From a virus: DNA of 64,000 nucleotides. The first letter of the stretch is position 1; every line of letters starts with the position of its first letter. The position numbers and the translations under genes were made by a program. Below, piece by piece: positions 19,193-33,403 of the stretch. The notes beneath the pieces are model-generated. The model had not been told where the DNA came from. It worked only from the letters and a program-made list of their open reading frames with translations, and searched no databases. The stretch spans positions 32,001 through 96,000 of the IMG/VR virus record IMGVR_UViG_3300035704_000002; one strand, given 5' to 3'.

Positions 19193-20800
19193 GTGGCGCA
19201 GCGGCGGTTCCTACCCGCGCTCCGGCGCATCTTCGCGCCCGCCCTGGAAAGCAAAGGTCTGCCCGAGCAGGTGCGCGCCAGTTCCCAGGCGTACCTCGTG
19301 CCTGGCGTCCCGTACTCGCAGAACTGGTCCACTCAGCGTGCCGTGCGCGAGGCGTACGAGCCGAATCCGCTGGTGTATCGGGCGATCGAGGTACTGGCCA
19401 CCAACGCGATCAGCCAGCGCATCGTGTTGCGCCAGGGTGACCCCGAGGAAGGCCCGATCATCGACACCGCGCACGACCCGACGCGGCTGCTCTACGTGTT
19501 CAACCGCCGCGCCAACCCGTGGGAGACCGCCAGGGTGTTCCGTCACCGGTTGGTGGCGCAGTGGCTACTGTCCTCACGCGGGCTGTTCGTGGAGATCATC
19601 CGCACACGCGGCGGCGGCATCGCCATGGTCAACCTGCTGGACCCCGACCTGGTCGACATGATCCCCGACCGGACCGACCCGATGCACGCCTTCCGGGTAC
19701 GCACCCCGAACTCCTCCACCGGATTCGACTACCTACCCCGCTTCGATCCGGCCAAGACCGCGCGCGAACAGCCCGCCTCCATCCTGTGGATGCGCAACCC
19801 GCACCCGACTGTGGCGTGGCAGGGCATGAGCCCGGTGCAGGCCGCCGGCCTGCCGATCGACCTGGATCGTTACGCCCGGCTCTACAACCGCCGATTTCTA
19901 CAGAACGACGGCCGGCCCGGCGGCCTGCTCTCGATCAAGGGTGTCGTGGCGCCGGCCACCATGGAGCTGATCCAGAGCCAGTTCATGGGCGGCCCCGACT
20001 CGGCCGGCCGTACCACCGTGATCAACGCCGACTCGGTGTCCTACGCGGACACCAGCGGCTCGCCCCGTGACACGCTCTGGGGCGACACGATGGACCGCAA
20101 CCGGCGCGAGATCTGCACCGCGTTCGGGGTGCCCGAGAGCGTGCTGGGCGACGCGTCCGGCCGCACCTTCTCCAACGCCGACGCCGAATACGCGATGTTC
20201 TGGGAACACCGCATGCTGCCGCTGGTGCGGGCGCTAGATGACCAACTCGACATCCTCACCGAGATCATGGGGCCGGATGTCTATTTGCGTCACGATGTGT
20301 CCAAGGTGTGGGTGCTGGGTCGCTACCAGCGCGAGCACGAGGACCGTCTGGCCGCCGACCAGCAGGCCGGCTACCGCACCATCGATGAGGTGCGGGTGGC
20401 CAAGGGCGAGAAGCCCCAGAACGTGCCCGCCACCCGCGTGCTGTGGATACCGCCGGGCAAGCTCGCCGTGGCCGACGCGAGTCGTCCGCACGACGCCGAG
20501 GAAGCCGCCGCCGCGCCGATCGGCGGCCCGGTCAACGCCGGCTCGGCCGGCTCCGGCGCCGCTCAGGCCGGCGTCAACCACCTGTCCGGCTCGGGCTACA
20601 GCGCCGGAGACACCGACTATCTGGGCAGCGGCAAGGGTGGCGGCGGCAACTCCGACCTGCGTTTGCTGTCCGGCTCCGGCGGCGGCCGGGCCGGTGGCGG
20701 CTTCGAGAACATGGGCGAGATCGACCCGGACGAACTGGAGGGTAAGCAGAGCGGCCCGCGACGCTGGGGCTCCCCCAGTGGAGCCCGCATCGCCGGTTAA
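19193..20800 (+). CDS. HK97-family portal protein
   Basis: VYRAI..LA, GMSPVQAA, FLQNDGRPGG, EICTAFGVP..LG..TFSNA, TIDEVR; SD GGAGG. Confidence 0.93.
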   Translation: MAQRRFLPALRRIFAPALESKGLPEQVRASSQAYLVPGVPYSQNWSTQRAVREAYEPNPLVYRAIEVLATNAISQRIVLRQGDPEEGPIIDTAHDPTRLLYVFNRRANPWETARVFRHRLVAQWLLSSRGLFVEIIRTRGGGIAMVNLLDPDLVDMIPDRTDPMHAFRVRTPNSSTGFDYLPRFDPAKTAREQPASILWMRNPHPTVAWQGMSPVQAAGLPIDLDRYARLYNRRFLQNDGRPGGLLSIKGVVAPATMELIQSQFMGGPDSAGRTTVINADSVSYADTSGSPRDTLWGDTMDRNRREICTAFGVPESVLGDASGRTFSNADAEYAMFWEHRMLPLVRALDDQLDILTEIMGPDVYLRHDVSKVWVLGRYQREHEDRLAADQQAGYRTIDEVRVAKGEKPQNVPATRVLWIPPGKLAVADASRPHDAEEAAAAPIGGPVNAGSAGSGAAQAGVNHLSGSGYSAGDTDYLGSGKGGGGNSDLRLLSGSGGGRAGGGFENMGEIDPDELEGKQSGPRRWGSPSGARIAG

Positions 20801-23261
20801 CGGCCAAGACCTGCCCGCCATCGCGCCCGCCGACATCACCACCACCGAAGCCCATCCCGCCCCGGCGCCCGGACCCGATCGGGAAGCGCTGGTGCTGGCC
20901 AGCCGGGCACGCATCGACGCCGCCCAGGCCACGATGACCGGCGCCCTGGATGGCTACCTGTCCCGGCTGGACGGCGTGGTCACCTCGCGCGTCAGGGGGC
21001 CGCGTGTGCGCAAGGGCACGCGCTGGTGGGGCGAGAACGCCAAGAGCCTGCACACGCCGATCTCGCTGGGCGGCGTGACCGGCCTGGAGACCAAGGCAGT
21101 GGACACCGGGTACGCGCTGCCGGACAAGCTGGTCGCCGAGGCGGCCGACGTGGCCCGCCCGATCGCGCAGCGAATCGCGCACGACGCCGCGCTGGCCACC
21201 GCCCGGTCGCTGAGTGTGCGTGTGCCCGGCGATCCGGCCGATATCTCGTTCGCGGTGGACCATGTCGCCCTGGAGCAGGCCGTGGATCGGGCCGTGAGCC
21301 GCGTCCAGGCGGTCGCCGACCACCACGCCACCCTGATCCGTGACGCCATCGGCCACGCCGACGCGCACGCCGAAACACTGGACGAACTGCTGGGCCAGGT
21401 GCAGGCCGCGCATGCCCAGGGCGCCGCCTGGGTGCGCATGGCCGGCCGCGCGGTGACCAACGGCCTGATCCAGGATGTGTCCACCGGGCAGGCGCGCGCC
21501 CTGGGCGTCACCCACGCGCAGTGGCTCTGCGTTGCGGCGGACACCAGGGTTTGGGCGCCAGGCGCGATCAATGTCGCTCAGCGATGGAGTGATGAGGGAC
21601 TACTTCGGATCGCGACAGCGCGGACGGTAGGCACCAGAAATATCCTGTCCGTCACCCCGGATCACCCGCTCCTGACTCAACGCGGTTGGATTTCGGCGCG
21701 CGAGATTCACCCAGGAGATCGACTCGTTCGCAGCGCCTTCGCCCAGAGGGAATCGGGGGGTAACCCACACATAGAGAATCTTCCAGCCAAGATCAGCGAG
21801 ACGTTCCGCGCGGCGGCGCAACTTCGCCCGACCGAGCGGATTATGCGCGTTGCGCCATACTTCGATAGCGACAGGCGCGGCAGCTATGTCGATGTTGTAC
21901 CGATCGACAGCGAGCTGCGGGACTGTCTGCAATCCGCGTTCCATGAGCCACGCGCTCAACTGCTGCTCACCCTCTCCGACCTTGACTTGGAGGGCTTGCT
22001 TGAGCTTCGCTCGTTCCGCCACCACGGCATCAGGTTGGCGTCGTCCAACGTTGAGTCCCGCCAGAAAAACGTTGCGCCCAGCAGTAATGTCGACAGCCTC
22101 ATGAGCGATACGGTTGAGACCAGCGGCCGAGTGGCTCCGCCAGGTGATGCCACGCTCCGTTACGATGAGCTTGATCATTTTGAGGGAAGTGTCGAATTCG
22201 ACCGCCAGTGCTCGCGCGGCACGCCCCGCGACGTATCCGGCGACGATGCCTTCCTTGTCCAGTACGCGACGGTTCCAGCGCAGCGCTTGCGCGGCCCTGG
22301 ACTGCTCGGTAGCTTCGGGGTGAGTCGCGAAGCGGATACGAACGGCTTGCTCGGGGGATCGCAGGACACCAATGTCGCGCAGCCTTCTCCTGATGGTTTC
22401 CGCGCTGACTCCCTCCAGAGTTTCCGCGATCTCGCGGGGCGATTCTCCGATTTGGTAACGCTGGACCAGGTTGTCGATGTCGAGTTCGATCCGACCCCTT
22501 GTCACGTGTACGACCTCCAGACGGAAACTGGCTGGTTCGTAGCCGATGGTTACGTCGTACACAATAGTCGCCGTGACGAACACGTGCGCCCCACCCACGT
22601 GCGGGCCGACGGCCAGGTGCGCGAACTGGGCGCGCCGTTCCGAGTGGGCACGGTCGACCTCGCCTATCCGTGCGATCCGGCCGGACTACCCGACACCTGG
22701 CCCGAGGTGGCCGGCTGCCGATGCGGCCTCCTGTTCCGCGCGCCGGCCGCCGACCACGCCCGCGCCCTGGGCACCCTGTCGACCACCCGGCCCAGCCGCG
22801 CTGGGCCGGGTGCGTTGGCCCTGCTGGCGGCCGTGGCGGCTGGGGGCATCGCGGTACACGAGGTGGCCGCGCCGTTGGGGGTGGCCGGTGGCCCGGACGG
22901 CGCGCCGCCACCATCCCGGCAAGTCGTGACCCACCAGTCGGTGGTCGGCTACCGCGCGCTGGAGCAGGAGCTGGCGGTGACGCCGGGGCAGTGGCTGCGC
23001 CTGCCCGGCCCGATCGTGCTGGGGTTGAGTGCGCCGAGCCTGTTCGCCGAGGGCGCGCCGGTGCTCTCGGTGCTGATTCCGGCTGGCGTCACGCTGACCG
23101 TGGCCGGCGGCCTGGCGGTACTGGCGGCCGGCACGGCGCTGGAAGTGCTCTCCAACGGTCCGACCGGCGTACAGGTGCAGGTCGCGGCACCGCAGGCGTC
23201 CTACTCGAAACCTACTCGAAACCTTGCCGCCACGGACGCGATCACCGCGCCGGCCACGTGA
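20778..23261 (+). CDS. MuF/gp7-like minor head protein containing an intein (start uncertain)
   Basis: Removing the intein restores QWL|SRRDEHVRPTH..ADGQ...CRC, the MuF motif. Confidence 0.85.
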   Translation: MEPASPVNGQDLPAIAPADITTTEAHPAPAPGPDREALVLASRARIDAAQATMTGALDGYLSRLDGVVTSRVRGPRVRKGTRWWGENAKSLHTPISLGGVTGLETKAVDTGYALPDKLVAEAADVARPIAQRIAHDAALATARSLSVRVPGDPADISFAVDHVALEQAVDRAVSRVQAVADHHATLIRDAIGHADAHAETLDELLGQVQAAHAQGAAWVRMAGRAVTNGLIQDVSTGQARALGVTHAQWLCVAADTRVWAPGAINVAQRWSDEGLLRIATARTVGTRNILSVTPDHPLLTQRGWISAREIHPGDRLVRSAFAQRESGGNPHIENLPAKISETFRAAAQLRPTERIMRVAPYFDSDRRGSYVDVVPIDSELRDCLQSAFHEPRAQLLLTLSDLDLEGLLELRSFRHHGIRLASSNVESRQKNVAPSSNVDSLMSDTVETSGRVAPPGDATLRYDELDHFEGSVEFDRQCSRGTPRDVSGDDAFLVQYATVPAQRLRGPGLLGSFGVSREADTNGLLGGSQDTNVAQPSPDGFRADSLQSFRDLAGRFSDLVTLDQVVDVEFDPTPCHVYDLQTETGWFVADGYVVHNSRRDEHVRPTHVRADGQVRELGAPFRVGTVDLAYPCDPAGLPDTWPEVAGCRCGLLFRAPAADHARALGTLSTTRPSRAGPGALALLAAVAAGGIAVHEVAAPLGVAGGPDGAPPPSRQVVTHQSVVGYRALEQELAVTPGQWLRLPGPIVLGLSAPSLFAEGAPVLSVLIPAGVTLTVAGGLAVLAAGTALEVLSNGPTGVQVQVAAPQASYSKPTRNLAATDAITAPAT
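21528..22565 (+). mobile_element. Intein 1 (346 aa), no recognisable in-frame nuclease
   Basis: Block A CVAADTRV, block B TPDHPLLT, block F VYDLQT, terminal HN followed by Ser. Confidence 0.93.
21600..22505 (-). CDS. HTH-repeat plus DUF559/Vsr-like endonuclease, antisense inside intein 1
   Basis: SD GGAGG 8 nt before GTG; YQIGESPREIAETLEGVSAETIRRRL HTH; E..L..L...PQLAVDRYNIDIA..VAIEV..H..R...L..LGWKILYVW. Confidence 0.85.
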   Translation of the reverse strand: MTRGRIELDIDNLVQRYQIGESPREIAETLEGVSAETIRRRLRDIGVLRSPEQAVRIRFATHPEATEQSRAAQALRWNRRVLDKEGIVAGYVAGRAARALAVEFDTSLKMIKLIVTERGITWRSHSAAGLNRIAHEAVDITAGRNVFLAGLNVGRRQPDAVVAERAKLKQALQVKVGEGEQQLSAWLMERGLQTVPQLAVDRYNIDIAAAPVAIEVWRNAHNPLGRAKLRRRAERLADLGWKILYVWVTPRFPLGEGAANESISWVNLARRNPTALSQERVIRGDGQDISGAYRPRCRDPK

Positions 23262-23565: not shown

Positions 23566-23671
23566 GTCCGCACGGTAGTCGGACACCTCGATCGTGTCGG
23601 CATGCCGGCCGCGCCGTCGCGCTGGGCTAGATTCACCGCGACGATCACAACTATTACCCAGGAGTAACACG

Positions 23672-24955
23672 GTGGGAGCTGCACCCGAGGTCGCCGACCC
23701 GTGGTCATCCCTGCGTCACACGCTCGAACGCACCAACACCTGGTACACGATGGCGTCGGGACTGGTCAGCGGTGCGCGCAGCCTCTACGCGCACTGGCGG
23801 GAACACAGCACCTTCACCGTGTCGGTGTCCAGCGCCGATCCCGGCTACCAGGACGTGCACGACTGGCTCGTGAACGCCGTACCGCCGGCCCGGCGACGGG
23901 CGCTGATGGTGTGCTCCGGCCAGCCCTATGCCGACTCCTCCGACGCCGTGCCCGCGTCGGACTCGCCGCCGACCGCCAGCGCACCGGTGCGCCTGGCCTA
24001 CGACTCCGGCCACGAACAGACCGTGCTGGTGTCCGGCCGGGCGGTGCGGGTGGCGTTGGCGCGTGGCGAGGACGACAGCGCCGGCTCGGGCGGCATGCGA
24101 CGTGTCCCGCCGGACCGGATCGTGTTCCGATGCCCCAGCCAGGCGGCCCAGCAGGCCGTCATCGACCACCTGATCACGATCATCGGTGACCGTTCGAACC
24201 GGCGCCGGACACCCCAACTGCACGTGCTCTCCTCGTGGGGCGGCTGGACGCGCCGTTCCGACATCCCGCCGCGCAGCCTGGAATCGGTTGTGCTGCGTGC
24301 CGGCCAGATGGAGGAGTTGATCTCTGATCTGGGCGAGTTCCTGAGCGCCGAGACCGAGTACATCCGCAGGGGTCAGCCCTGGCACTACGGCTGCCTGCTG
24401 CAAGGTCCGCCCGGCACCGGCAAGACCAGCATCGTCAAGGCGCTGGCCAGCCACTTCGGCCTGGATCTGTGGCACGTGCCGCTCGGCGACCTCATCAGTG
24501 ACACCAGCCTGTCCACCCTGCTGGCGCAGGTGCATCCGCGTTCCATGCTGCTGCTGGAGGACGTGGACATCTACGCCGCCGCGACCAGCCGCAAGGCCGA
24601 GGCGGAACAGGTGTCGCTCTCGGGTCTGCTCAACGCGCTGGACGGGGTGATCACGCCACACGGCCTGATCATCGTACTGACCAGTAACGAGCCGGCATCC
24701 CTCGATCCCGCGCTGGTCCGGCCCGGCCGCATCGACCGGGTGGAGAACGTCGACCACCTCACCGACGAACAGGCACACCGGCTGTTCGTCACCTTCTACC
24801 AGCAGCCTGCGCGGCTGACCTGGACCATCGCGCCCGAGACCGCCAGCGCCGCCGTCATCGGCGTGTTCAAACACCACCTGCGCGACCCGGACGCGGCCGA
24901 GCGGGCGCTGTGCCGCGCACTGGCACACCAGCCTCCGCTCCCGGTACCGGTGTAG
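23672..24955 (+). CDS. BCS1-like AAA+ ATPase
   Basis: R.LESVVL, GPPGTGKTS, LLEDVD, SLSGLLNALDG, LDPALVRPGRID; SD AGGAG. Confidence 0.9.
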   Translation: MGAAPEVADPWSSLRHTLERTNTWYTMASGLVSGARSLYAHWREHSTFTVSVSSADPGYQDVHDWLVNAVPPARRRALMVCSGQPYADSSDAVPASDSPPTASAPVRLAYDSGHEQTVLVSGRAVRVALARGEDDSAGSGGMRRVPPDRIVFRCPSQAAQQAVIDHLITIIGDRSNRRRTPQLHVLSSWGGWTRRSDIPPRSLESVVLRAGQMEELISDLGEFLSAETEYIRRGQPWHYGCLLQGPPGTGKTSIVKALASHFGLDLWHVPLGDLISDTSLSTLLAQVHPRSMLLLEDVDIYAAATSRKAEAEQVSLSGLLNALDGVITPHGLIIVLTSNEPASLDPALVRPGRIDRVENVDHLTDEQAHRLFVTFYQQPARLTWTIAPETASAAVIGVFKHHLRDPDAAERALCRALAHQPPLPVPV

Positions 24956-25011: not shown

Positions 25012-28000
25012 ATGTCGCGCGTGGCGAACCGAGACCCCGAAGCAGACGGCCCGCGCACCTCGGGCATGGTGGCGCTGATGCCCACGGCGGCCGATGCCCA
25101 ACGTCTCGCCGTGGACGGCGGCGAAGACCCCGACCAGTTGCACCTCACGCTGGCCTACCTCGGTGACAACGCCACCGGCCTGCCGCCGGAAACCCAGCAG
25201 GCACTCCATCAGGTGATGGGGCACCTGGCAGCCGAGACACCGCCGGTGGACGCCCGCGCCGCCGGGCATCTGCTGCTGAATCCCGACGGTGGCCCGGACG
25301 GTGACCGCACGCCCGTGGCGGCCTACCTGATGTCCGACTCCGACGCGCTCACCCCGCTGCACGAGGCGGCGAAGGCGGCGGCCGGCGCGGCCGACCCGGC
25401 CCTGACCCAGTTCTCGCCGTTCATCCCGCACGTGTCCGGCGCCTACGACCGCGACGCCGGAGCGCTGGGCTACGCCGGACCGGTCAGCTTCGACCGGATG
25501 CGGGTAGCGATCGGCGACGGGCACACCGACTACCCGCTGACCGGCCCGGCGTCCGGGGGCACCGATCCGGATGCCGACGGCGACATTGATGACGGCACCG
25601 GCGTGAACACCGACGACGACCCCACCGTGGGCGATGACGGCGCCAGGTCCGACAAGCCGGAGGGCAAGTCCGTGATCAGCCTGGCCGAGTTGGTGGAGCT
25701 GGCCGAACTGACCAACCTGGTGAGCGAAACCAAGGGCGACGCCCCCGACGGCGGCAACTCCGACGCGCCGCCCCACTCGATGCCCGACGGCAGCTACCAG
25801 ATCAACCATCCCGGCCAGCTCAAGCAGGCCATCAACGCGCTGACCGCCTACCAGGTCGCCAAGGGCAAGCGCGGGGCGCTGCGCAAGCATGTGATGAAGC
25901 ACGCCGCGCGATTGCACGCGCAGAACATGGTGCCACAGTCCATTCAGGACGAAGGCGACGACGACCCCGACGCCAAGAAGGACGCCGCGCCGGAGCCGGT
26001 CGAGACGAAGAACGTCGTGGCCACCCAGGCCGGCGTGGCCAGGTACGGCAAGCCGATCGGGACCGTGCTGGGCGCGCCGCGTGATGCCGCCGCCGCGCAG
26101 GCGCAGAAGGACACCGGCGCGGTCACCGCCTACCAGGATCTGCTCGCCGGTAACACGCGGAGCGTGGAACCGCTGAACACGATGGACCCCAGCAGCCTCG
26201 AAGCACTCACGCGCGTCGCCTACAGCTACAAATCCTCCGATCCGAAGGTCGTGGCACTGCGCGTGCAACTGGCCAACGAGCTGGCCAAACGCGGCCTGAA
26301 GGTCACCAGTTTCGGCGCCCTGGGCGGTGGCGGACCGACCAAGCCCGCCAGGGGCAAGGCGCCGGTCAAGCCGAAGGCGCCCGCGAAGCCGGCCCCGACT
26401 CCAGCGCAGGTTGCCGGCGCGCGCGGCGTGGCCGCGCCGCACGTCCAGGCCAAGGGTGATCTGGACGTCACGGAGGTGGAGTACAAGACGAAGTACACCG
26501 CTGATGACCGGCGCACCATGGCCAAGAAGGGGCAGGCGCTGCCGGATGGTTGCCTCTCTGGTGACACGTTGGTGGCAACTCGCAATGGCTCCGTCCGCAT
26601 TGACGCCCTCCCGTCTGAGTGCGAATTGCTAACTGATCACGGGTGGACGCAAGCTACTGTCTGCGGATTTGGAGTACAGAAACTGCGAGCTGTTGAACTG
26701 TTTGACGGTGTGCGAACCGAGATCGTCCACGCTACGTCAGGTCACAGATGGCTGATTGATGGTGGCGACTGGAGACTCACAGACGATCTGATCGTTGGCG
26801 ACCGCATTCCCCATGTTGATGTATCGAGCAATGATTTCAATGCCGACCTCGTCAACACGGCCCATCAGCGTATTGCACGTAAGGCAAAGCAGACCCCGCA
26901 CCATTCCAGTGCGATGGTCGTGATCAACCTGGAAGCCGGTCCATGTACGACCGGTACGAGTGTTGGCACGATTGATCTTCGGGATGCGATGACAGATAGC
27001 ACACAGGCCGCGCTGACTGGCAAGAAGTGCGTCGAACTCCGCTTGTCCAATGCTGTACTTGCGCCGCAGCATTCCATCTCGGCGACGCATCCAGCGCTCA
27101 TCGGCAACATCCACCCGTTCAGCGCTGGTGCGTGCTCTGTTTTGGCAGCAGAAACGGCAGTCGGTTCGCCGACGCTGATTGCGGATATAGAAATCGGTAT
27201 GCGGTCGTTCGGCGCCGCAGGTGCGGCAGGTGACAAAACCGACATAGCCGACTGGTACACCCTTGGCGTAAACGGACACGGTCATCCCACGAATGCTACC
27301 CGTTCGTGGGAGGTTGTGGGTATCAAAGCCACGCGCCGCATCGAGGAGGTTTTTTGCGCACTGGTTCCAGACTTGCACCGGTTTGTACTAGCCAGTGGCG
27401 TTTTGACCGGAAATAGTTATCCGATCATGGACCGGTCCGACCTGGACTCCGCGATCCGACTACGCGGACGGCACAGCGAATACTCCGCCGATACGGTCGT
27501 CAAGCACATCGTCAAACGCGCCAAGGCGATCGACGCCACCGACATGCTGCCCGACGGCATGGCCGCCGGGGTGCAGGAGAAGCAACTGTCCTGGGACGGC
27601 GCGCCGGACGCGTTCACGGCCGGCGTGCTGCTCGGCCTGTCCGGCCTGGACACCGACGAAGCGCTGGAGCTGAAGGCCGGCCCGCCGGGACACACCTTCG
27701 CCTCGCCCGACCCGAACGCCGCACGGCTGCGCCGGTACTGGGTGTTCGGCAAGGGACGCGCAAAGATCAACTGGGGTGTTCCGGGCGACTTCGACCGCTG
27801 CGTCGCGGAACTCACCAAGTACGTCGGCGACCGCGCCAAGGGCTTGTGCAACATCTACCACCGCTCCGCGCTCGGCGTCGCGCCCGGCCAGGAGGACAAG
27901 CCCGGCCACGCCGTCGCCAAGGCCGTGGGTGCCATGGTGGGTGCCAAGAAGTCCGAGGACGACGAGACCGAAACCAAGGCGCTGACCGCGTTGTGGGTAC

Positions 28001-28755
28001 GCGACCCGGCCGCCGTGGACGGGTGGCGTGCCTACGCGCCCGCGTGGCCACTGGATGACGACCTGATCGCGGAAATGAAAGCGTTGCGTCCCAACAAGCC
28101 CAGCGGTGGCTACGTCGGGGCCGACGACGAGGAGGACAGCCCCGACGGCAACGCGCCCGACGATACGAACAACACCGACTCGGGCACCGACGACGACGTA
28201 CTGTCCGCGCTGGACAACTATGCCGCCATGGCACCACAGATCAGCCCCGAAGACGCCTACATGCAGGCCATCGGCGACCAGATCCCCTGGCAACTGGCCG
28301 CCACCGGCGATCTGGTCAACCCCGACTCGCCCGGTGGTGAAGTGCCTGTGCTACAACGCGAGGAAGCGCGGTTCGGTGAGGCCGGACCGTCCGACGCGGC
28401 CGTGGACGACCTGTCCGGCACCGACGAGGTACCCGACGCCGACGACGCCGGGGCGGATGACGACCCCACCTTCCCCGATGACGGTGATCTGAGCTTCGAC
28501 CCGGACGATACGAACGAGACCGATGACGGCACGGATGGCCCGGATGACGGCGCCGGGGACACCGGCGACGGTTCGAACGAGAGCGACACCGGCGCCGCCA
28601 TTCCGGAGGTGGCCGAACTGCTGGCCGACCTGATGGCCGAACAGGACACGGTGGCCGCGCCGACGGATGACGACGATGCTGGCGAGCCGGAGGAAGACAG
28701 CACGGCGATCACTACCGCCCCGAAGCGCCAGGCCGCCGCCAGTGTTACCGCGTAA
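25012..28755 (+). CDS. Multidomain head-associated protein: 2H phosphoesterase, repeated modules, intein, acidic tail
   Basis: HLTL (25141) and PHVS (25429); two PDGSY.I modules; YW..GKG.AKI.W..PGDF.RC module. Confidence 0.8.
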   Translation: MSRVANRDPEADGPRTSGMVALMPTAADAQRLAVDGGEDPDQLHLTLAYLGDNATGLPPETQQALHQVMGHLAAETPPVDARAAGHLLLNPDGGPDGDRTPVAAYLMSDSDALTPLHEAAKAAAGAADPALTQFSPFIPHVSGAYDRDAGALGYAGPVSFDRMRVAIGDGHTDYPLTGPASGGTDPDADGDIDDGTGVNTDDDPTVGDDGARSDKPEGKSVISLAELVELAELTNLVSETKGDAPDGGNSDAPPHSMPDGSYQINHPGQLKQAINALTAYQVAKGKRGALRKHVMKHAARLHAQNMVPQSIQDEGDDDPDAKKDAAPEPVETKNVVATQAGVARYGKPIGTVLGAPRDAAAAQAQKDTGAVTAYQDLLAGNTRSVEPLNTMDPSSLEALTRVAYSYKSSDPKVVALRVQLANELAKRGLKVTSFGALGGGGPTKPARGKAPVKPKAPAKPAPTPAQVAGARGVAAPHVQAKGDLDVTEVEYKTKYTADDRRTMAKKGQALPDGCLSGDTLVATRNGSVRIDALPSECELLTDHGWTQATVCGFGVQKLRAVELFDGVRTEIVHATSGHRWLIDGGDWRLTDDLIVGDRIPHVDVSSNDFNADLVNTAHQRIARKAKQTPHHSSAMVVINLEAGPCTTGTSVGTIDLRDAMTDSTQAALTGKKCVELRLSNAVLAPQHSISATHPALIGNIHPFSAGACSVLAAETAVGSPTLIADIEIGMRSFGAAGAAGDKTDIADWYTLGVNGHGHPTNATRSWEVVGIKATRRIEEVFCALVPDLHRFVLASGVLTGNSYPIMDRSDLDSAIRLRGRHSEYSADTVVKHIVKRAKAIDATDMLPDGMAAGVQEKQLSWDGAPDAFTAGVLLGLSGLDTDEALELKAGPPGHTFASPDPNAARLRRYWVFGKGRAKINWGVPGDFDRCVAELTKYVGDRAKGLCNIYHRSALGVAPGQEDKPGHAVAKAVGAMVGAKKSEDDETETKALTALWVRDPAAVDGWRAYAPAWPLDDDLIAEMKALRPNKPSGGYVGADDEEDSPDGNAPDDTNNTDSGTDDDVLSALDNYAAMAPQISPEDAYMQAIGDQIPWQLAATGDLVNPDSPGGEVPVLQREEARFGEAGPSDAAVDDLSGTDEVPDADDAGADDDPTFPDDGDLSFDPDDTNETDDGTDGPDDGAGDTGDGSNESDTGAAIPEVAELLADLMAEQDTVAAPTDDDDAGEPEEDSTAITTAPKRQAAASVTA
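26551..27414 (+). mobile_element. Intein 2 (288 aa), no recognisable in-frame nuclease
   Basis: CLSGDTLV, ATSGHRW, EEVFCALVP..HRFVL, terminal GN followed by Ser; excision restores PDG|SYPI, matching the uninterrupted PDGSYQI copy. Confidence 0.92.
26737..27285 (-). CDS. Endonuclease VII-family nuclease, antisense inside intein 2
   Basis: CRTC..F..CRFC; RKYSI...FDALL..QRGLCAIC; VDHDH.TG.VRGLLC..CN..MG. Confidence 0.92.
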   Translation of the reverse strand: MTVSVYAKGVPVGYVGFVTCRTCGAERPHTDFYIRNQRRRTDCRFCCQNRARTSAERVDVADERWMRRRDGMLRRKYSIGQAEFDALLASQRGLCAICHRIPKINRANTRTGRTWTGFQVDHDHRTGMVRGLLCLTCNTLMGRVDEVGIEIIARYINMGNAVANDQIVCESPVATINQPSVT

Positions 28756-28774
28756 GGACAGGAGGGGCGCCCAC

Positions 28775-31700
28775 GTGGGTACGCCGACGATCATGGGTGC
28801 GGGGCTGCCCGCGTTCCTGGAGTACAAGACCGCACTGTCGGGCGCACCGCGTGAACTGGTCGAACCGGACGCGCCGATGGAGTTCAAGACCGCCGTGCTG
28901 ACCGCGCCGCCGGGCACGGTGCTTCGGCCCAGCGATGTCAGTGCGGACGCGCACGAGGTTACGGCCGTGATCGCGGTGACGGGCGTGCTGGACGAGGTGG
29001 GCGACGTGATCGTGCCGGGTGCGTTCGCCGACACGCTGCGCGAGCGGCCTCGGCCGAAGGTCTGCCTGGGTCACGACTGGAACCGGCCCATCGGTAAGAC
29101 GAAGTGGATCAAGGAACTGTTGCCGGGTGACCCCGGCCTGCCGCCGACCACCTATGACGGTAAGGCGTGGCCCGCCGAGGCCGGCGCCGTGCTGGCTCGT
29201 TACGTCCCGGACATGTCCACTCCGGATGGCAACAACGCCTACCACAGCGCCAAGTTCTTCGGCCCCGAGGAATCCACGTTCAGCTTCGGCTACAAGACAC
29301 AGAACTCCGAGCGCCGCAACGGCAGGCGCTACCTGAAGAAGCTCGCCGTGTACGAGTACGGCCCGGTGCTCAACCCGGCCAACCGGCTGGCCACGTTGCA
29401 GGAGATCAAGACCGACGAGCCGGACAGCCTGGAAAGCAAGGTCAAGCAGGTTCGTGACGTCGCGTACTGGGGCGAACCCTACGGCTCGCCGATCGGCGAG
29501 CACACGCACCCGCACGGGCCGAAGGCGCGGGCCGAGCGCCGGGCCGGTCGCGTGCCCTCCCGCTCGGTCGGCATCATGGAGCCCGGACACGCACCCCCCG
29601 TCGCACCCAAGATCAGCACGGCGGATCGTGCCGCCGAGATCGAACACACCGGCCTGTTCCCCGAGCCGGCGTCCGCCGCGCGCGCGCTGCCCGGTCCGCG
29701 CGCCACCGGCGCGGACCAGCAGCACATCGACGCTCTCGCCGGACACATCCGTGACGGGCTGGCCGAACCGGAGGCCGACGACGAAGACCGCGCCGCCGTC
29801 GACAAGGCGGTGCGCGGCCTGCTCACCGAGGCCATCACCCCGAACGAGGTGCACGACCGGCTCGCCGCCCATCCCGAGATCACGGCCGGCGCCGACGCGC
29901 ACAACGAGGCGGTGGACCGGGTCGGCCGCGACTACGCGGCGCGCTACGGCGCCCTGGCCGCCGAGCAACAGCGCGTGCGCACGCAGGCGGGTACGCCGCT
30001 GCCGCCGGAGCGGTTCACCGGGATGACCAACACCCAACTGCGCGGACACGAGAACGCCAGCCAGCAGATCCTGAGCGACCTGACCACATCGGGCGTCGGC
30101 CACGACGAACCGTCCGCACAGCTCGCCTCGGCCAACATCCAGGGCGCCCAGCACGAGATGGCGCTACGCGCGCGGGCCGCGCGTGAACATCCGGCCGTGC
30201 TCAAGGCGCACGCGCAGGGTGAAGCGCTGTTCCGCAAGAACCCGGCGCAGGCCGCGACGCGCGCCGATGCGATGCAGTCGGTACTGGAGGAGCTGCACCG
30301 CCAGCAGGCCGTGAAGCCACCACCGCAGGGCAGCCGCGCGGAGCGGATGCCGCACCAGATCCAGGCCATGATGCGGGGTCTGCGTGGCGTGTCGGGTGGC
30401 AGCAAGGAGACGCCACTTCCCTCGACTAACCGAGCTGAGCCGGCTAGTGTAGAGAGCATGCCCGAGGAGCCCGCCAAGCCAGCCCGCCGCATCCTGAGCG
30501 ACTTCAGCGACGCCGAACTGGCGAAGGAGAAGGACAAGGCCGCCCACACCGTGTTCATCCACGCGCAGCGGCCCGATGGCGCGCGTGCCCGAAAGCGCCT
30601 CGCTGCTATCCAGGTCGAACGAGACCGACGCAACGACGCCGCCCGACGCAGCGTGCCCGCCCACTCACTGGCGCCCGCCGACTACCAGGCCGCGCAGGAT
30701 CACGCCCTGAACACCCGGTTCGCGCAGCAGGAGATGACGCGGCAGAACGATCAGGTCGACAAGCACAACGCCCGCATCACCAGCGCCGAACAGACCGCCG
30801 CCAGCGCGCCGGCCACGATCGACCACGCGCCCGAGGGCACCGAGATCGTCGGCGGCGGTCGGCTACTGCTGGCCAATGGCACCACCAACTCCTGGTCCCT
30901 GCGCAGCGCGGACAACAAGCACCTGCTGGGTGCCGACGACTTCGCCACACTGAAAGGCGGCAAGGCGAAGCTGAGTCGGGCCAAGATCAACGACCTGGCC
31001 GACCACGTCGCCGGCATCCGTGACAGCAATGGCAACCGGGTGCCCTTCACCGCGCCCAACTCCGCCGACTGGGCGCCCGGCTTCCGCGACGAGCACGGTA
31101 ACAACCTGGTCGGCGCGAGCGCCCTGGCCGTGCGGGACTGGACCGGGCGTAACGGCGTCGGCGTGCACAAGAACTCACGATTCGCCCGTAACGTCACGCC
31201 GGCCGGCGGTCGCCTCTCCCGCACCGACAAGCCCGACGCCGACGGCTTCTATCCACGCCAGCCCATCGGCAACGCCCGACCCGGCGACGAGGTCACCACG
31301 CCCGACGGCCACGTCAAGACCGTGGTGCGCACCTCGCGCGCCGAGCACACGCACGACACGCGCGGCAACTACGTCCAACCCTCGCACCGCACCTCCACCA
31401 CCACGCTGCACTTCGGCGACGACACCAGCCACTCCGAACAGCGCAACGACTACGGCGGCAGGGGCACCATCGGCATCCGGTACGCCAACGGCGCCTCGCC
31501 GATGGACGCCTCGCGCGCGGCCGACCCCGGCATGGGCTTCACCTCCGCATCCAACATCGGCAGCCGACCCGGCAGCATCGACACCCCCTCGGCCAAGAAG
31601 TTCGACCAGGAGGCCGCCACCGCGCTACGCAACACCCCCGCCCCCGGCACCCGGTTCACCGAAGCGCGCAGCGAAGGGCAGGACTACAAAGATCAGCGAC

Positions 31701-33403
31701 CGAAGGTCGGCACGATCACCGATCGCGTCGGTCAGGTCCAGGGCGCTCCGGCCCGCGTGGTCGAGTACGACGACGGCACTTTCGACGCCATGACGCCGGC
31801 CGGCCTGGGCAAGATCAACGCTTCGCCCAGCGAAGATGAGGTCAACGAAGCGCGCTCCGCGTGGGGACTGCCGCGCACCGGGTCCGACCACGCCACCGAA
31901 GCGGCGCGCGCCGCCACTGAGGCCGCCGCGCCCGATCGTGCCGAACCGCGCCGGGTGGCGCCCAGCGAAGTGCCAACCCCGAAGACCCCGAACGTGCCCG
32001 AGATAGGCGCGCCGGCCGAAACCCATGCCAACGCGCTGGCCCGGATGAACGACCGGCAGGCGCGCGAGCACATCGCCACGTTGCCGCACAGCACACTGAG
32101 CGGCATCGACCAGGTCATGGCGCACCGCGCCAGCGCACTGGGCAAGCCCGACGTCGTCACCGCCAAGCACCAGATGGTGCGTGACGCCATTCCGGCCGCG
32201 TCCGGATCAGCCGTGGTAACCGGGCCAATGCAGGACGAGATGGCACAAGCCCGCTCCGAGGTGCTGGGACTGCACGAACTTCCCGACGGCCATCTGGAAG
32301 TCGAGCCCGAGGTGGGCGCCCGCCAGGACCGCGTGGCCAAGCTGCTCACCGAGCACGAGGCCGGCGCGCTGGACCTGAAGTCGCGCAGTACGGAAGACCT
32401 GCACCAGCATCACCGTGACCTGTCCAACGAACTGCGCCTTCAGCAGGAAATCGCCCGCCGCGACGCCGTGCACCCGCCCAAGCGTGTGTCGGTGGCCACC
32501 ACACAGGCCGGCACCCCACGCGTGCGGCCCGGTCTGGCCGGCGCTGCCCAGGATCACGCCGAAGCCCTGCGGTCCGAGGACGCCGCCGCGATCAACCGCA
32601 CGCGGCAGCGACTGGAGTCCGCGCTACGCCGCTCACGCGCCAACTCCGACACCGCGCACACCCTGGCGCAGCATGTCGACGCTGGCCACGCCCACGCCTC
32701 GACCCTGGACTCCCTGGCCGGCAGCCTGCGCGCCGAATCCCGTCAGAAGCGCAACGACGCCGCGCGCAAGCGCACCACCGCCAAGCGACTGGACCGCGAA
32801 CGCATCACCTCGGTACTGGGCAGCGTGAACTCCGAACTGCGCAGCCGGGGCGAGTCACCGGAGGTGGCCAAGGAGCTGGGCGCGCCGCGCACCGCGAACA
32901 CCCCTGAGACACCGCTGATGTCCGAGGGGCCGGTACTGCGCGAGGTGGTCGGGGGGCCAGGTGCCGTGCGGCAGGTGGCCAGCGAAGAACCGAAAGCCGA
33001 ACCGGTCGCCACCGCCAACAACGCCAACGTGTCCCACGTCTTGCATAGTGTCCCATCGTGGGATAGTATTAAGGAGTCAGCAGGAACTCAACCTGAAGGA
33101 CCCCCAATGGCCACCGCCGCCCAGGTTCGCTACGCCACAAAGCTCCAGGCAGACCTCCGCGAACGCATCACCTGGCCCCTGGACCGCGACATTCTCGCCC
33201 GCGCACTGCGCCCCCCAACCGCAAACATGCTCGCCAACCCCGAAGATAGGGCCGCTGCACGGGCCGCGATCGAGGCATACGACCCCAACGCCGCCATCGA
33301 CGCCTGGATCGCCCGCCGCGCCGATCTGGCCGACACTGATCTGGCCACCTTGGACGGCACTCAGATGTCCGCCTGGATCGACGCCGTCAAGAAATCCTTG
33401 TGA
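28775..33403 (+). CDS. HK97-type prohead protease with very long C-terminal extension
   Basis: D.VGDVI.PGAF, HDW.RPIG, FSFGY, YEYGPV..PAN; SD AGGAGG. Confidence 0.88.
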   Translation: MGTPTIMGAGLPAFLEYKTALSGAPRELVEPDAPMEFKTAVLTAPPGTVLRPSDVSADAHEVTAVIAVTGVLDEVGDVIVPGAFADTLRERPRPKVCLGHDWNRPIGKTKWIKELLPGDPGLPPTTYDGKAWPAEAGAVLARYVPDMSTPDGNNAYHSAKFFGPEESTFSFGYKTQNSERRNGRRYLKKLAVYEYGPVLNPANRLATLQEIKTDEPDSLESKVKQVRDVAYWGEPYGSPIGEHTHPHGPKARAERRAGRVPSRSVGIMEPGHAPPVAPKISTADRAAEIEHTGLFPEPASAARALPGPRATGADQQHIDALAGHIRDGLAEPEADDEDRAAVDKAVRGLLTEAITPNEVHDRLAAHPEITAGADAHNEAVDRVGRDYAARYGALAAEQQRVRTQAGTPLPPERFTGMTNTQLRGHENASQQILSDLTTSGVGHDEPSAQLASANIQGAQHEMALRARAAREHPAVLKAHAQGEALFRKNPAQAATRADAMQSVLEELHRQQAVKPPPQGSRAERMPHQIQAMMRGLRGVSGGSKETPLPSTNRAEPASVESMPEEPAKPARRILSDFSDAELAKEKDKAAHTVFIHAQRPDGARARKRLAAIQVERDRRNDAARRSVPAHSLAPADYQAAQDHALNTRFAQQEMTRQNDQVDKHNARITSAEQTAASAPATIDHAPEGTEIVGGGRLLLANGTTNSWSLRSADNKHLLGADDFATLKGGKAKLSRAKINDLADHVAGIRDSNGNRVPFTAPNSADWAPGFRDEHGNNLVGASALAVRDWTGRNGVGVHKNSRFARNVTPAGGRLSRTDKPDADGFYPRQPIGNARPGDEVTTPDGHVKTVVRTSRAEHTHDTRGNYVQPSHRTSTTTLHFGDDTSHSEQRNDYGGRGTIGIRYANGASPMDASRAADPGMGFTSASNIGSRPGSIDTPSAKKFDQEAATALRNTPAPGTRFTEARSEGQDYKDQRPKVGTITDRVGQVQGAPARVVEYDDGTFDAMTPAGLGKINASPSEDEVNEARSAWGLPRTGSDHATEAARAATEAAAPDRAEPRRVAPSEVPTPKTPNVPEIGAPAETHANALARMNDRQAREHIATLPHSTLSGIDQVMAHRASALGKPDVVTAKHQMVRDAIPAASGSAVVTGPMQDEMAQARSEVLGLHELPDGHLEVEPEVGARQDRVAKLLTEHEAGALDLKSRSTEDLHQHHRDLSNELRLQQEIARRDAVHPPKRVSVATTQAGTPRVRPGLAGAAQDHAEALRSEDAAAINRTRQRLESALRRSRANSDTAHTLAQHVDAGHAHASTLDSLAGSLRAESRQKRNDAARKRTTAKRLDRERITSVLGSVNSELRSRGESPEVAKELGAPRTANTPETPLMSEGPVLREVVGGPGAVRQVASEEPKAEPVATANNANVSHVLHSVPSWDSIKESAGTQPEGPPMATAAQVRYATKLQADLRERITWPLDRDILARALRPPTANMLANPEDRAAARAAIEAYDPNAAIDAWIARRADLADTDLATLDGTQMSAWIDAVKKSL
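30422..30450 (+). promoter_or_regulatory. Internal promoter-like site in the protease ORF
   Basis: TCGACT-aaccgagctgagccggc-TAGTGT, in-frame ATG at 30458. Confidence 0.5.
33041..33069 (+). promoter_or_regulatory. Internal promoter with operator-like repeats
   Basis: TTGCAT-N17-TAGTAT; GTGTCCCA twice; TCCCA-N3-TGGGA palindrome. Confidence 0.7.
33107..33403 (+). CDS. Small protein nested in frame at the 3' end of the protease ORF
   Basis: Own promoter, SD GAAGGA and ATG; MATAAQVRYA...SAWIDAVK. Confidence 0.65.
   Translation: MATAAQVRYATKLQADLRERITWPLDRDILARALRPPTANMLANPEDRAAARAAIEAYDPNAAIDAWIARRADLADTDLATLDGTQMSAWIDAVKKSL

Follow-up and report, generated by a model that had tools for sequence, protein, structure and literature searches.

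An intein in a head-module gene of an uncultured soil phage carries an antisense endonuclease VII-family gene

Inteins whose nuclease is encoded apart from the splicing frame have been published before, with other types of nuclease, and the concept is unchanged by the case described here. In actinobacteriophages, Gosselin, Arsenault, and Gogarten report inteins in which LAGLIDADG or Vsr-like nucleases are encoded antisense and endonuclease VII-like ones on the same strand but out of frame (bioRxiv 10.1101/2025.01.02.630785), and the DnaX intein of Synechocystis carries an antisense LAGLIDADG ORF (Gorbalenya 1998 and Gogarten 2002, both cited in that preprint); the cyanobacterial dnaX intein is also the subject of a 2026 preprint (10.64898/2026.09.14.751524). 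The intein analyzed here resembles the actinobacteriophage inteins, as the former preprint presents them, in that the nuclease ORF lies in the nuclease-insertion region and is not in frame, the host frame is open across an in-frame stretch lacking recognizable structure, and the nuclease is kin to free-standing phage endonucleases. Endonuclease VII-like nucleases and head-protein hosts are both included in their set, and the origin proposed there is likewise that of a free-standing gene invading an intein. The difference is one of strand: the endonuclease VII-like nucleases they describe share the intein's strand and are read in frame 3, whereas ours is antisense, and the nucleases of their antisense inteins are of the LAGLIDADG or Vsr-like types. 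As in the Synechocystis DnaX intein, the endonuclease has an ORF of its own outside the intein frame, but the nuclease families differ, the host gene there is bacterial rather than phage, and the inteins are unrelated. Our literature search returned no antisense endonuclease VII in an intein, although the supplementary tables of Gosselin et al. may hold such an entry.

The DNA analyzed, hereafter the window, is a 64-kb stretch (64,000 nucleotides) from an uncultured soil phage with a 128-kb genome of 67% GC. The host gene belongs to the head module and looks essential, with an N-extein at 25012..26550 and a C-extein, starting SYPIMDRSDLDSAI, at 27415..28755, both on the plus strand. Its longest ORF begins at GTG 24910, and an ATG 34 codons downstream is the start used both by the collection's own protein and by an intein-free homologue (P0014). 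The N-extein comprises an N-terminal LigT-like 2H/RNA-ligase-like domain and the first copy of a DGSY.I motif; the initial annotation had placed a paralogous PDGSYQI copy near 25780, and this motif, unoccupied and within the same protein, lies at 25783..25803 (plus strand). We set this copy aside as a second target site; it has only 24 of 42 nt in common with the occupied site. Contigs from one soil run, possibly the source of this DNA, contain the whole stretch, and a second soil run yielded exact extein fragments, with the intein part uncovered and no contig spanning it.

The intein itself is 288 aa long (26551..27414, plus strand), running from Cys1 to ...VLTGN and followed by Ser at +1. 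It has the block B motif T-S-G-H-R-W, the block F motif EEVFCALVPDLH, and a Gly-Asn end. None of blocks A, B, F, and G varies among the five aligned family proteins, and Cys1, T-S-G-H, the terminal G-N, and the +1 Ser are likewise the same in all five. The N-terminal splicing (Hint) lobe (26551..26823; pLDDT ~80-87) and the C-terminal lobe with blocks F and G (27301..27414; pLDDT ~72-85) flank an open host-frame "mirror" linker (26824..27300), all on the plus strand; the linker's ~160 residues lack confident structure in a model built on a five-sequence alignment (pLDDT ~25). Foldseek matched the Hint lobes to mini-inteins (E 3e-5, 23 matches at E <= 0.001, target-normalized TM 0.69-0.76), and neither the intein nor the complete host protein matched any Pfam family at E <= 0.01. 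By sequence and modeled fold, the element carries the hallmarks of a Hint splicing domain and is predicted to splice. It is also a low-GC island (0.54-0.60 against ~0.70 in the flanks) that takes in the whole intein and not the nuclease part alone.

Class 3 inteins, with their WCT triplet, are the subject of Tori et al. 2010 (PMC2807308). The triplet stands at B:12, F:4, and G:5 (Kelley et al. 2016, PMC5050341), and our comparison draws on that source and on Beyer et al. 2020 (PMC7664689). With block numbering assigned by eye from the alignment, the window intein has a WCT triplet in H-R-W of block B, V-F-C of block F, and L-T-G-N at the end, with Trp two residues past the block B His, the block F Cys, and Thr third from the end, and its fold matches the class 3 DnaB intein of M. 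smegmatis (6bs8) at 26% identity. Unlike class 3 inteins, which by definition lack it, the window intein keeps Cys1, invariant in the family, and it also departs from them in its penultimate Gly. The initial annotation was correct in giving the end as Gly-Asn rather than His-Asn, and this ending is a known, functional variant in mycobacteriophage inteins (PMC5050341).

Within the loop of the splicing domain, on the minus strand, lies an endonuclease VII-family gene of 182 aa plus stop (26737..27285; ATG at 27285, stop TGA at 26739-26737), and the motifs by which it was first recognized, CAIC and VDHDHRTGMVRGLLCLTCN, are present in the ORF. The Pfam Endonuclease_7 model (PF02945) matches residues 104-178 of a 213-aa form at 62 bits, against a gathering cut-off of 23.6 (E 5.2e-17), far beyond what chance would give, and seven PHROG "endonuclease VII" families match with a best E of 8e-25. 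By tblastn, the nuclease has matches in 614 phage records, all below 60% identity (~33% among the matches listed), and 17 of these span at least 80% of it counted from ATG 27285. An N-terminal CxxC...CxxC zinc ribbon precedes the catalytic core, in which D121, H122, H124, N138, and Cys95/98/134/137 are invariant in eight of eight family sequences. In total, 27 columns are invariant among these eight, including all eight Cys, the D-H-x-H, and the Asn, and the window nuclease is full-length with every one of them. Its last ~29 codons overlap the Hint N-lobe and are unconserved and poorly modeled; the model as a whole has a pLDDT of 71, with Hpy99I and T4 endonuclease VII as the top fold matches. 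No longer, fused versions of the nuclease turned up when we searched for them, although such a search is weak evidence in itself. Judged from sequence, the ORF is a genuine member of the endonuclease VII family, and DNA cleavage by its product is predicted.

The nuclease shares with T4 endonuclease VII (gp49; PDB 1en7, 1e7d, 2qnf) a Zn-bound beta-beta-alpha-Me core with DHDH...RGLLC..CN, but the sequence match is weak (E 0.22), the window protein has an additional N-terminal zinc ribbon, and its setting is that of a homing enzyme and not a resolvase. A Met, in place of an acidic residue, aligns with T4 Glu65. In the T4 enzyme, Glu65 is an important residue. Closer likenesses are free-standing endonuclease VII homing genes such as Escherichia phage EcoDS1 gp13.5 and those of Streptomyces phage EGole and Mycobacterium phage Phabba, at ~33% identity over ~75-85% of the nuclease, zinc ribbon and catalytic core included, and PHROG families 2633 and 2914 match as well; these free-standing genes are placed between genes, whereas the window's is inside an intein and on the opposite strand.

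The nuclease and host frames stand in exactly complementary register, with minus-strand codon position 1 opposite plus-strand position 3 and the host frame running through the nuclease gene. In this mirror register, only the nuclease codons TTA, CTA, and TCA give host stops, and the nuclease uses none of them. In this genome of 67% GC, 20-36% of 183-codon stretches have an open mirror frame by chance, so that reading frames open on the two strands add little alone. We compared codon positions among the three independent lineages with DNA (the window and the related loci L138 and L136). In the Hint lobes, matches at plus-strand positions 1, 2, and 3 number, for example, 77, 82, and 38 of 124, making the third host-frame position the most variable; across the nuclease core they number 60, 103, and 97 of 140, such that the most variable position is the third of the minus strand. 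Fisher tests of position 1 versus position 3 gave 3e-3 to 1e-8 for the three pairs of window, L138, and L136, and over the same codons nuclease identity is 55-60% versus 26-31% for the host-frame linker. These patterns show that the frame under selection is the plus one across both splicing lobes and the minus one across the nuclease core. With an opposite-strand ORF between blocks B and F, an open intein frame, and purifying selection on the antisense frame, the window has the features of an antisense-nuclease intein, and the ORF layout is the same in L136, L137, and L138.

These three loci, obtained by an alignment-based scan of viral contigs, carry the antisense nuclease in the same codon register as the window; a scan with the single intein sequence had returned no relatives. 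The two-strand unit occurs at the same DG|S(Y/F)PI site, the conserved insertion point, in different head-module proteins of other uncultured phages. A mirror of the catalytic core was found in 11 of 156 representative proteins and in none of the reversed-sequence controls; P0001-P0004, P0007-P0009, and P0014-P0021 are known as protein only. In a further intein of the family, at L139, the endonuclease VII is more distantly related and is encoded out of frame (+1) on the sense strand, and five members (P0019, P0022, P0023, P0025, and P0029) have no mirror motif, with Pfam detecting no in-frame nuclease domain in them. The intein-free homologue P0014 (protein only) reads PDG|TFPIMDRSDL at the insertion point and is, as read, colinear with the host protein at 86% identity over the aligned 8% of the queried region, and empty DGS(F/Y)PI sites occur at six further viral or metagenome loci. 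Cultured phages gave no match to this region in a DNA search, nor to this intein family, the DG|S(Y/F)PI site, or the host protein. Two other candidates were set aside. The single, weak N-lobe tblastn match in cultured phages falls in the helicase region of a Pectobacterium phage, where there is a LAGLIDADG gene, and is unrelated to this family. The sole match in a scan of genome contigs, a locus in an Actinomycetota MAG, is a different intein; it interrupts another gene and has its LAGLIDADG motif in frame.

The initial annotation also proposed that the nuclease is transcribed independently from a leaderless promoter and possibly regulated at an inverted repeat. The sequence elements that it named are in place: TAGCAT, a candidate -10 hexamer preceded by GGG, lies on the minus strand at 27293..27298, 7 nt 5' of ATG 27285, and it is overlapped by a perfect 8-bp inverted repeat with a 9-nt loop (27286..27310), formed by CCCACGAA (27286-27293) and TTCGTGGG (27303-27310). 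A TANNNT 6-7 nt upstream is found at 33 of 2753 ATGs in the genome (1.2%) and at 1 of 63 ATG/GTG codons in the intein. The nuclease ATG of L138 has the same TANNNT at 7 nt, with G-G/A before it as in the window, and is the only one of 141 ATGs in 6.9 kb to do so. The layout is absent before the nuclease ATG of L136 and L137, where the gene probably starts further upstream, within the block F mirror. In M. tuberculosis, 73% of primary start sites and 76% of antisense ones have a TANNNT centered 7-12 bp upstream, often with S-R-N before it (PMC3898074). A sigma-70-type scan of 26300-27800, which demands a -35 element, returned no promoter. The -35 element is often absent from actinobacterial promoters. 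In the same scan, three terminator-like sites were found against 1.1 expected, all within the nuclease gene. Given the occurrence of the TANNNT-7 nt-ATG layout in two of three lineages (window and L138), independent leaderless transcription of the nuclease gene from the candidate promoter is plausible; that the transcript specifically starts as leaderless mRNA at ATG 27285 from TAGCAT seems to us almost as probable as the contrary. The proposed regulation fared less well and is unsupported. The window holds 49 perfect 8-bp inverted repeats with 3-12 nt loops, this one was not found upstream of the L138 or L136 nuclease genes, and hairpin energies are unremarkable there (z -0.4 and +0.1, against -2.3 in the window, on the host-gene strand only). 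We therefore reject the repeat as a conserved operator or regulator.

In light of these findings, the element is in our view probably a mobile intein with its homing endonuclease encoded by a separate, antisense endonuclease VII-family gene rather than as a fused, in-frame domain. The beta-beta-alpha-Me nuclease gene appears to occupy the splicing-domain loop, the usual nuclease position of inteins, and protein splicing would remove the host-frame linker along with the intein. The nuclease would be made from a transcript of its own, opposing the late structural operon, and would cut intein-free alleles of co-infecting relatives, whose repair would copy intein and nuclease in. Such an arrangement may have originated when a free-standing endonuclease VII gene invaded an intein without a nuclease. 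The GC island, the intein-free homologue, and the empty sites at six other loci are hallmarks of mobility; homing at DG|SYPI is suggested by context alone, and nuclease-less copies of the intein could be an alternative target.

It is possible, if improbable, that the endonuclease VII gene is instead an independent free-loader for which the intein is a safe harbor, leaving the DG|SYPI intein-free allele uncut and spreading on its own account, for instance, by cleaving copies of this intein that lack a nuclease. Phages abound in free-standing relatives, the family members that lack the mirror motif fit such a history, and the sense-strand nuclease at L139 argues for more than one capture event. 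However, intein and antisense nuclease travel together at one site in different host proteins, and the low-GC island corresponds to the whole intein. We find it less probable still that the nuclease is an inactive relic, vertically inherited and intact for want of time to decay. Homing endonuclease genes commonly decay after fixation, and both the Met at the position of T4 Glu65 and the unconserved C-terminal tail extending into the Hint lobe are in keeping with this, but the ORF is full-length with all 27 family-invariant residues, purifying selection has left its signature between lineages, and the GC island together with intein-free P0014, at 86% over its short aligned stretch, suggests a recent gain. 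A role for the enzyme in the phage's own life, as a junction-resolving or packaging endonuclease of the T4 gp49 kind, with its nesting incidental, is highly unlikely: the gene is the sole endonuclease VII-family match in the 128-kb genome, as that role would suggest, but its closest matches are homing-type genes with N-terminal zinc ribbons, the intein-free relative P0014 would be without the gene here, and it is antisense to the late operon. Finally, the chance that the ORF is a mere shadow of the host frame is negligible, for although this genome has many long mirror-frame ORFs, the Pfam match (E 5e-17) and the conservation of the minus frame over the plus, with minus position 3 as the variable one, refute it and bear out the initial annotation of an antisense endonuclease VII inside the intein as selected coding sequence.

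The intein with its separately encoded nuclease adds the combination of endonuclease VII and antisense orientation, an insertion site, and a host protein to the short list of such inteins. It is a clean example of how high GC permits two genes to share codons in mirror register, and it exposes an annotation trap, as gene callers annotate one of the two, host gene or nuclease, and the intein goes unrecognized by Pfam. The occurrence of the same kind of nuclease on either strand within one intein family is the pattern expected from repeated invasion of nuclease-less inteins by free-standing endonuclease genes. A broader and more doubtful reading, which we offer tentatively, is that one intein lineage, fixed at the DG|S(Y/F)PI site of head-module proteins in phages, captured endonuclease VII genes repeatedly and in both orientations, with the antisense form represented by the window, by L136-L138, and by some ten protein clusters, and the sense form (+1 frame) by L139, and that the antisense form is a self-contained unit with a leaderless promoter lying in the coding sequence that adjoins the C-terminal splicing lobe. 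As a self-contained transcription unit, the nuclease could be made independently of, and perhaps before, the late host gene. If this is true, timing rather than fusion would couple the nuclease to the intein, and these inteins would be living intermediates on a route by which mobile inteins arose "splicing first, nuclease later".

Every feature described in the initial annotation was found in the sequence at its reported position, and the antisense endonuclease VII gene within the intein is borne out by Pfam and PHROG matches as well as by a codon-position selection signal. The 182-aa nuclease ORF runs on the minus strand from ATG 27285 to a stop at 26739-26737, scores 62 bits against Pfam Endonuclease_7 (cut-off 23.6, E 5.2e-17), and matches seven PHROG 'endonuclease VII' families (best E 8e-25). 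A tblastn search with the protein returned relatives in 614 phage records, at <60% identity (~33% among the matches listed), and because, with the protein taken to begin at ATG 27285, the match in 17 of these records spans 80% or more of it, the search supports this ATG rather than the upstream GTG 27378 as the start. T4 endonuclease VII aligns only weakly (E 0.22), with DHDH...RGLLC..CN kept and a Met of the nuclease opposite Glu65 of the T4 enzyme. A structure model built from an 8-sequence alignment (mean pLDDT 71) has an N-terminal zinc ribbon and a beta-beta-alpha core, with Hpy99I (E 3.7e-4) and T4 endonuclease VII (E 0.015) as the best fold matches. Related antisense nucleases (L136:3133-3927 (-), P0002, P0003, and L063) are longer, carrying one or two extra N-terminal zinc-finger-like modules of the pattern C..E.C...........C..HY, with a probable start that mirrors the block F His codon of the intein; in the window and the related locus L138 the nuclease is of the short form. 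A terminator scan detected three terminator-like hairpins, all within the nuclease gene, two on the minus strand (26896-26914 and 27155-27171) and one on the plus strand (27121-27136), against 1.1 expected from shuffles.

The frames of the nuclease and the host gene are in exact mirror register, the first position of a minus-strand codon pairing with the third of a plus-strand codon. Three independent lineages with the antisense gene were compared at the DNA level, namely the window, L138, and the near-identical loci L136 and L137 (1 nt apart within the intein), which give three pairs. Between the window and L138, matches at plus positions 1, 2, and 3 number 77, 82, and 38 of 124 codons in the Hint (splicing) lobes and 60, 103, and 97 of 140 codons in the nuclease core; the most variable position therefore switches from plus position 3 to plus position 1, which is minus position 3. 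For every one of the three pairs, in lobes and core alike, Fisher tests of position 1 against position 3 reach significance (3e-3 to 1e-8). Given this switch, and given that across the nuclease-core codons the minus-frame (nuclease) translation is 55-60% identical versus 26-31% for the host-frame translation, the minus frame is selected in the middle of the intein and the plus frame in the splicing lobes. True double constraint on both strands is small. Overlap with the N-lobe is limited to the last ~29 nuclease codons, and this C-terminal tail is unconserved, ends earlier in L138, and is poor in the model.

Across the nuclease gene, stops in the mirror (host) frame arise only from TTA, CTA, and TCA in the nuclease frame, none of which occurs among its 8 Leu and 6 Ser codons. 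Together these three account for 0.87% of codons across the likely genes of the phage genome, which gives P = 0.20 over 183 codons; redrawing the synonymous codons of the nuclease from its own composition also gives 0.20, and 36% of 183-codon windows in likely genes have an open mirror frame. The absence of the three codons is not strong evidence of special tuning. Because mirror frames are so often open by chance in this genome, a backwards insertion in mirror register has a fair chance of being tolerated, with selection on the host gene removing the remainder. The block G Leu (..LA..) is encoded by the rare codon CTA in the window (27391-27393) and in L136/L137 (about 3937-3939 in L136), creating a minus-strand TAG stop just upstream of the nuclease ORF; L138 has TTG there.

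The initial annotation had also proposed that the nuclease is transcribed independently from a leaderless promoter and possibly regulated at an inverted repeat. The TAGCAT hexamer and its 7-nt spacer do precede the nuclease ATG, and this is the sole arrangement of TANNNT 6 or 7 nt before a start in the intein on either strand (1 of 63 ATG/GTG codons), the genome baseline being 1.2% (33 of 2753 ATGs). The nuclease ATG of L138, which lies at a different codon position in the alignment, has TAGGCT 7 nt upstream and is the only such ATG among 141 in that 6.9-kb locus. In both, G-G/A-N precedes the candidate -10 hexamer, which fits both the S-R-N extension and the promoters with a -10 element alone described for Mycobacterium tuberculosis, where TANNNT is reported at 76% of antisense start sites (PMC3898074). 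The motif is absent before the nuclease start in L136/L137, where the longer nuclease, with its extra zinc finger, is likely to begin at an ATG mirroring the block F His codon. By eye, no strong ribosome-binding sequence lies upstream of any of the three nuclease starts. We regard the candidate leaderless promoter before the nuclease ATG as tentative, at slightly less than an even chance. The evidence does not favor regulation at the inverted repeat. The repeat lies upstream of the putative transcript start at 27285, and its folding is poor on the nuclease strand (z -1.1) but good on that of the host gene (-24 kcal/mol, z -2.3, equalled by 5 of 200 shuffles). Neither L138 nor L136 has an equivalent repeat, and perfect 8-bp repeats of this type number 49 across the window; on present evidence, it is probably incidental rather than a regulatory element.

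The intein itself extends on the plus strand from Cys1 at 26551 to a ...VLTGN end at 27414, followed by Ser, and a Pfam search recognized no family in it. Four metagenome proteins (P0007-P0010, 36-45% identical) have in common with it the invariant blocks A, B, F, and G and the junctions, A(L/M)PDG before the initial C and TGN before S(Y/F)PI. In a model built from a 5-sequence alignment, pLDDT is 80-87 for residues 1-91, 72-85 for residues 251-288, and ~25 for residues 92-250; the confident parts match mini-inteins, including the Ssp DnaB mini-intein (E 3e-5), with TM 0.69-0.76 normalized to the target, and also the class 3 M. smegmatis DnaB intein. Class 3 inteins are defined by a WCT triplet at positions B:12, F:4, and G:5 (PMC5050341; also PMC7664689), and in alignment A1 of the intein family (window 26737-26760 and 27361-27414) the triplet is present as a Trp two residues past the block B His, the block F Cys, and a Thr two positions before the C-terminal Asn. 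Cys1 is invariant in the family, and the penultimate residue is Gly. Since Cys1 is kept, however, the family departs from the class 3 definition on its second criterion. Either Cys1 or the block F Cys is a candidate for the cysteine that starts splicing. The Gly-Asn ending is not exotic: Gly, Lys, and Ser have all been reported as the penultimate residue of mycobacteriophage inteins, and in the RDF intein the native Gly supports better splicing than a His substitution (Kelley et al., PMC5050341).

The parent virus record is 128,202 bp with direct terminal repeats and 67% GC, and the window covers its bases 32001-96000. The plus-strand neighbors of the host gene (24910/25012-28755) form a head-morphogenesis module comprising another intein-bearing gene (20238-23261), an AAA-type ATPase gene (23594-24955), and a gene with a head-maturation-protease domain (28667-33403). 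By this protease domain, the nearest cultured phages infect Streptomyces, Gordonia, and Brevibacterium (18 records, all <60% identity), and the phage host is therefore likely an actinobacterium. The N-terminus of the host protein (25012-25650) carries a LigT-like/RNA-ligase-like domain (phrog_2659, E 1e-30), which is fused to head maturation proteases in other phages. The motif DGSY.I...L..AI occurs twice in the host protein (first at 25783-25803), and the intein occupies the second copy only. The entire intein is a GC trough (0.54-0.60 versus ~0.70 in the flanks). P0014 is a host-protein homologue without the intein, reading PDG-TFPIMDRSDL across the junction (hyphen); only 8% of the queried region aligned, at 86% identity, and by eye the two proteins are colinear along the length of P0014. 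At six other loci an unoccupied ...PDGS(F/Y)PI...DL.NAI... site is present, so the target is a conserved motif of the sort that homing elements usually occupy. The most likely role of the antisense endonuclease VII gene is to drive intein homing.

A five-intein profile scored against 1.84 billion representative proteins detected 2055 at E <= 0.001, of which 26 reached E <= 1e-30. Among 156 examined proteins (P0006-P0161, the window's own included), 11 contained the endonuclease VII core in mirror image, taken as at most 3 mismatches to a 16-position degenerate pattern, and no reversed-sequence control did; other family proteins have the common site and splicing lobes with a different middle. 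In one relative of the same family at the same DG-SF site (L139:3031-3894), an endonuclease VII gene lies in frame +1 of the sense strand (L139:3257-3841 (+); Pfam E 5e-20) and is only 33-36% identical to the antisense ones, which suggests a separate capture or an inversion. DNA and tblastn searches of cultured phages, and a scan of prokaryote contigs sampled at one genome per species, found no family members. In Pectobacterium phage Amona (L151, record 30323-31791), a stretch upstream of a DNA helicase gene shows weak similarity to the intein N-lobe (E 7e-4); the annotation there has two hypothetical ORFs plus a LAGLIDADG homing endonuclease that overlaps, perhaps a further mis-annotated intein or else a split arrangement.

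The intein of gene 20238-23261 contains a 332-aa minus-strand ORF (21600-22598) that has helix-turn-helix matches and, at a sub-threshold 24.7 bits (cut-off 38.2, E 2.4e-5), also matches the Vsr-like/PD-(D/E)XK nuclease family PF18741, with no match in a PHROG search; both inteins of the head module therefore appear to carry backwards nuclease genes. A 2025 survey of actinobacteriophage inteins describes four non-canonical layouts, namely in-frame HNH, anti-sense LAGLIDADG (earlier in Gorbalenya 1998 and Gogarten 2002, as cited there), anti-sense Vsr-like, and endonuclease VII-like on the same strand in frame 3, and proposes that inteins were invaded by free-standing nucleases (Gosselin, Arsenault, and Gogarten, bioRxiv 10.1101/2025.01.02.630785). 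A cyanobacterial dnaX intein with an out-of-frame nuclease is the subject of a 2026 preprint (10.64898/2026.09.14.751524). Full-text literature searches, which covered article text rather than the survey's supplementary tables, turned up no description of an intein with an antisense endonuclease VII. The antisense or out-of-frame layout itself is already in print, and what is new here is the combination of nuclease type and orientation, the insertion site, and the host protein. The antisense endonuclease VII gene in this intein is real, under selection, and part of a small metagenomic family.
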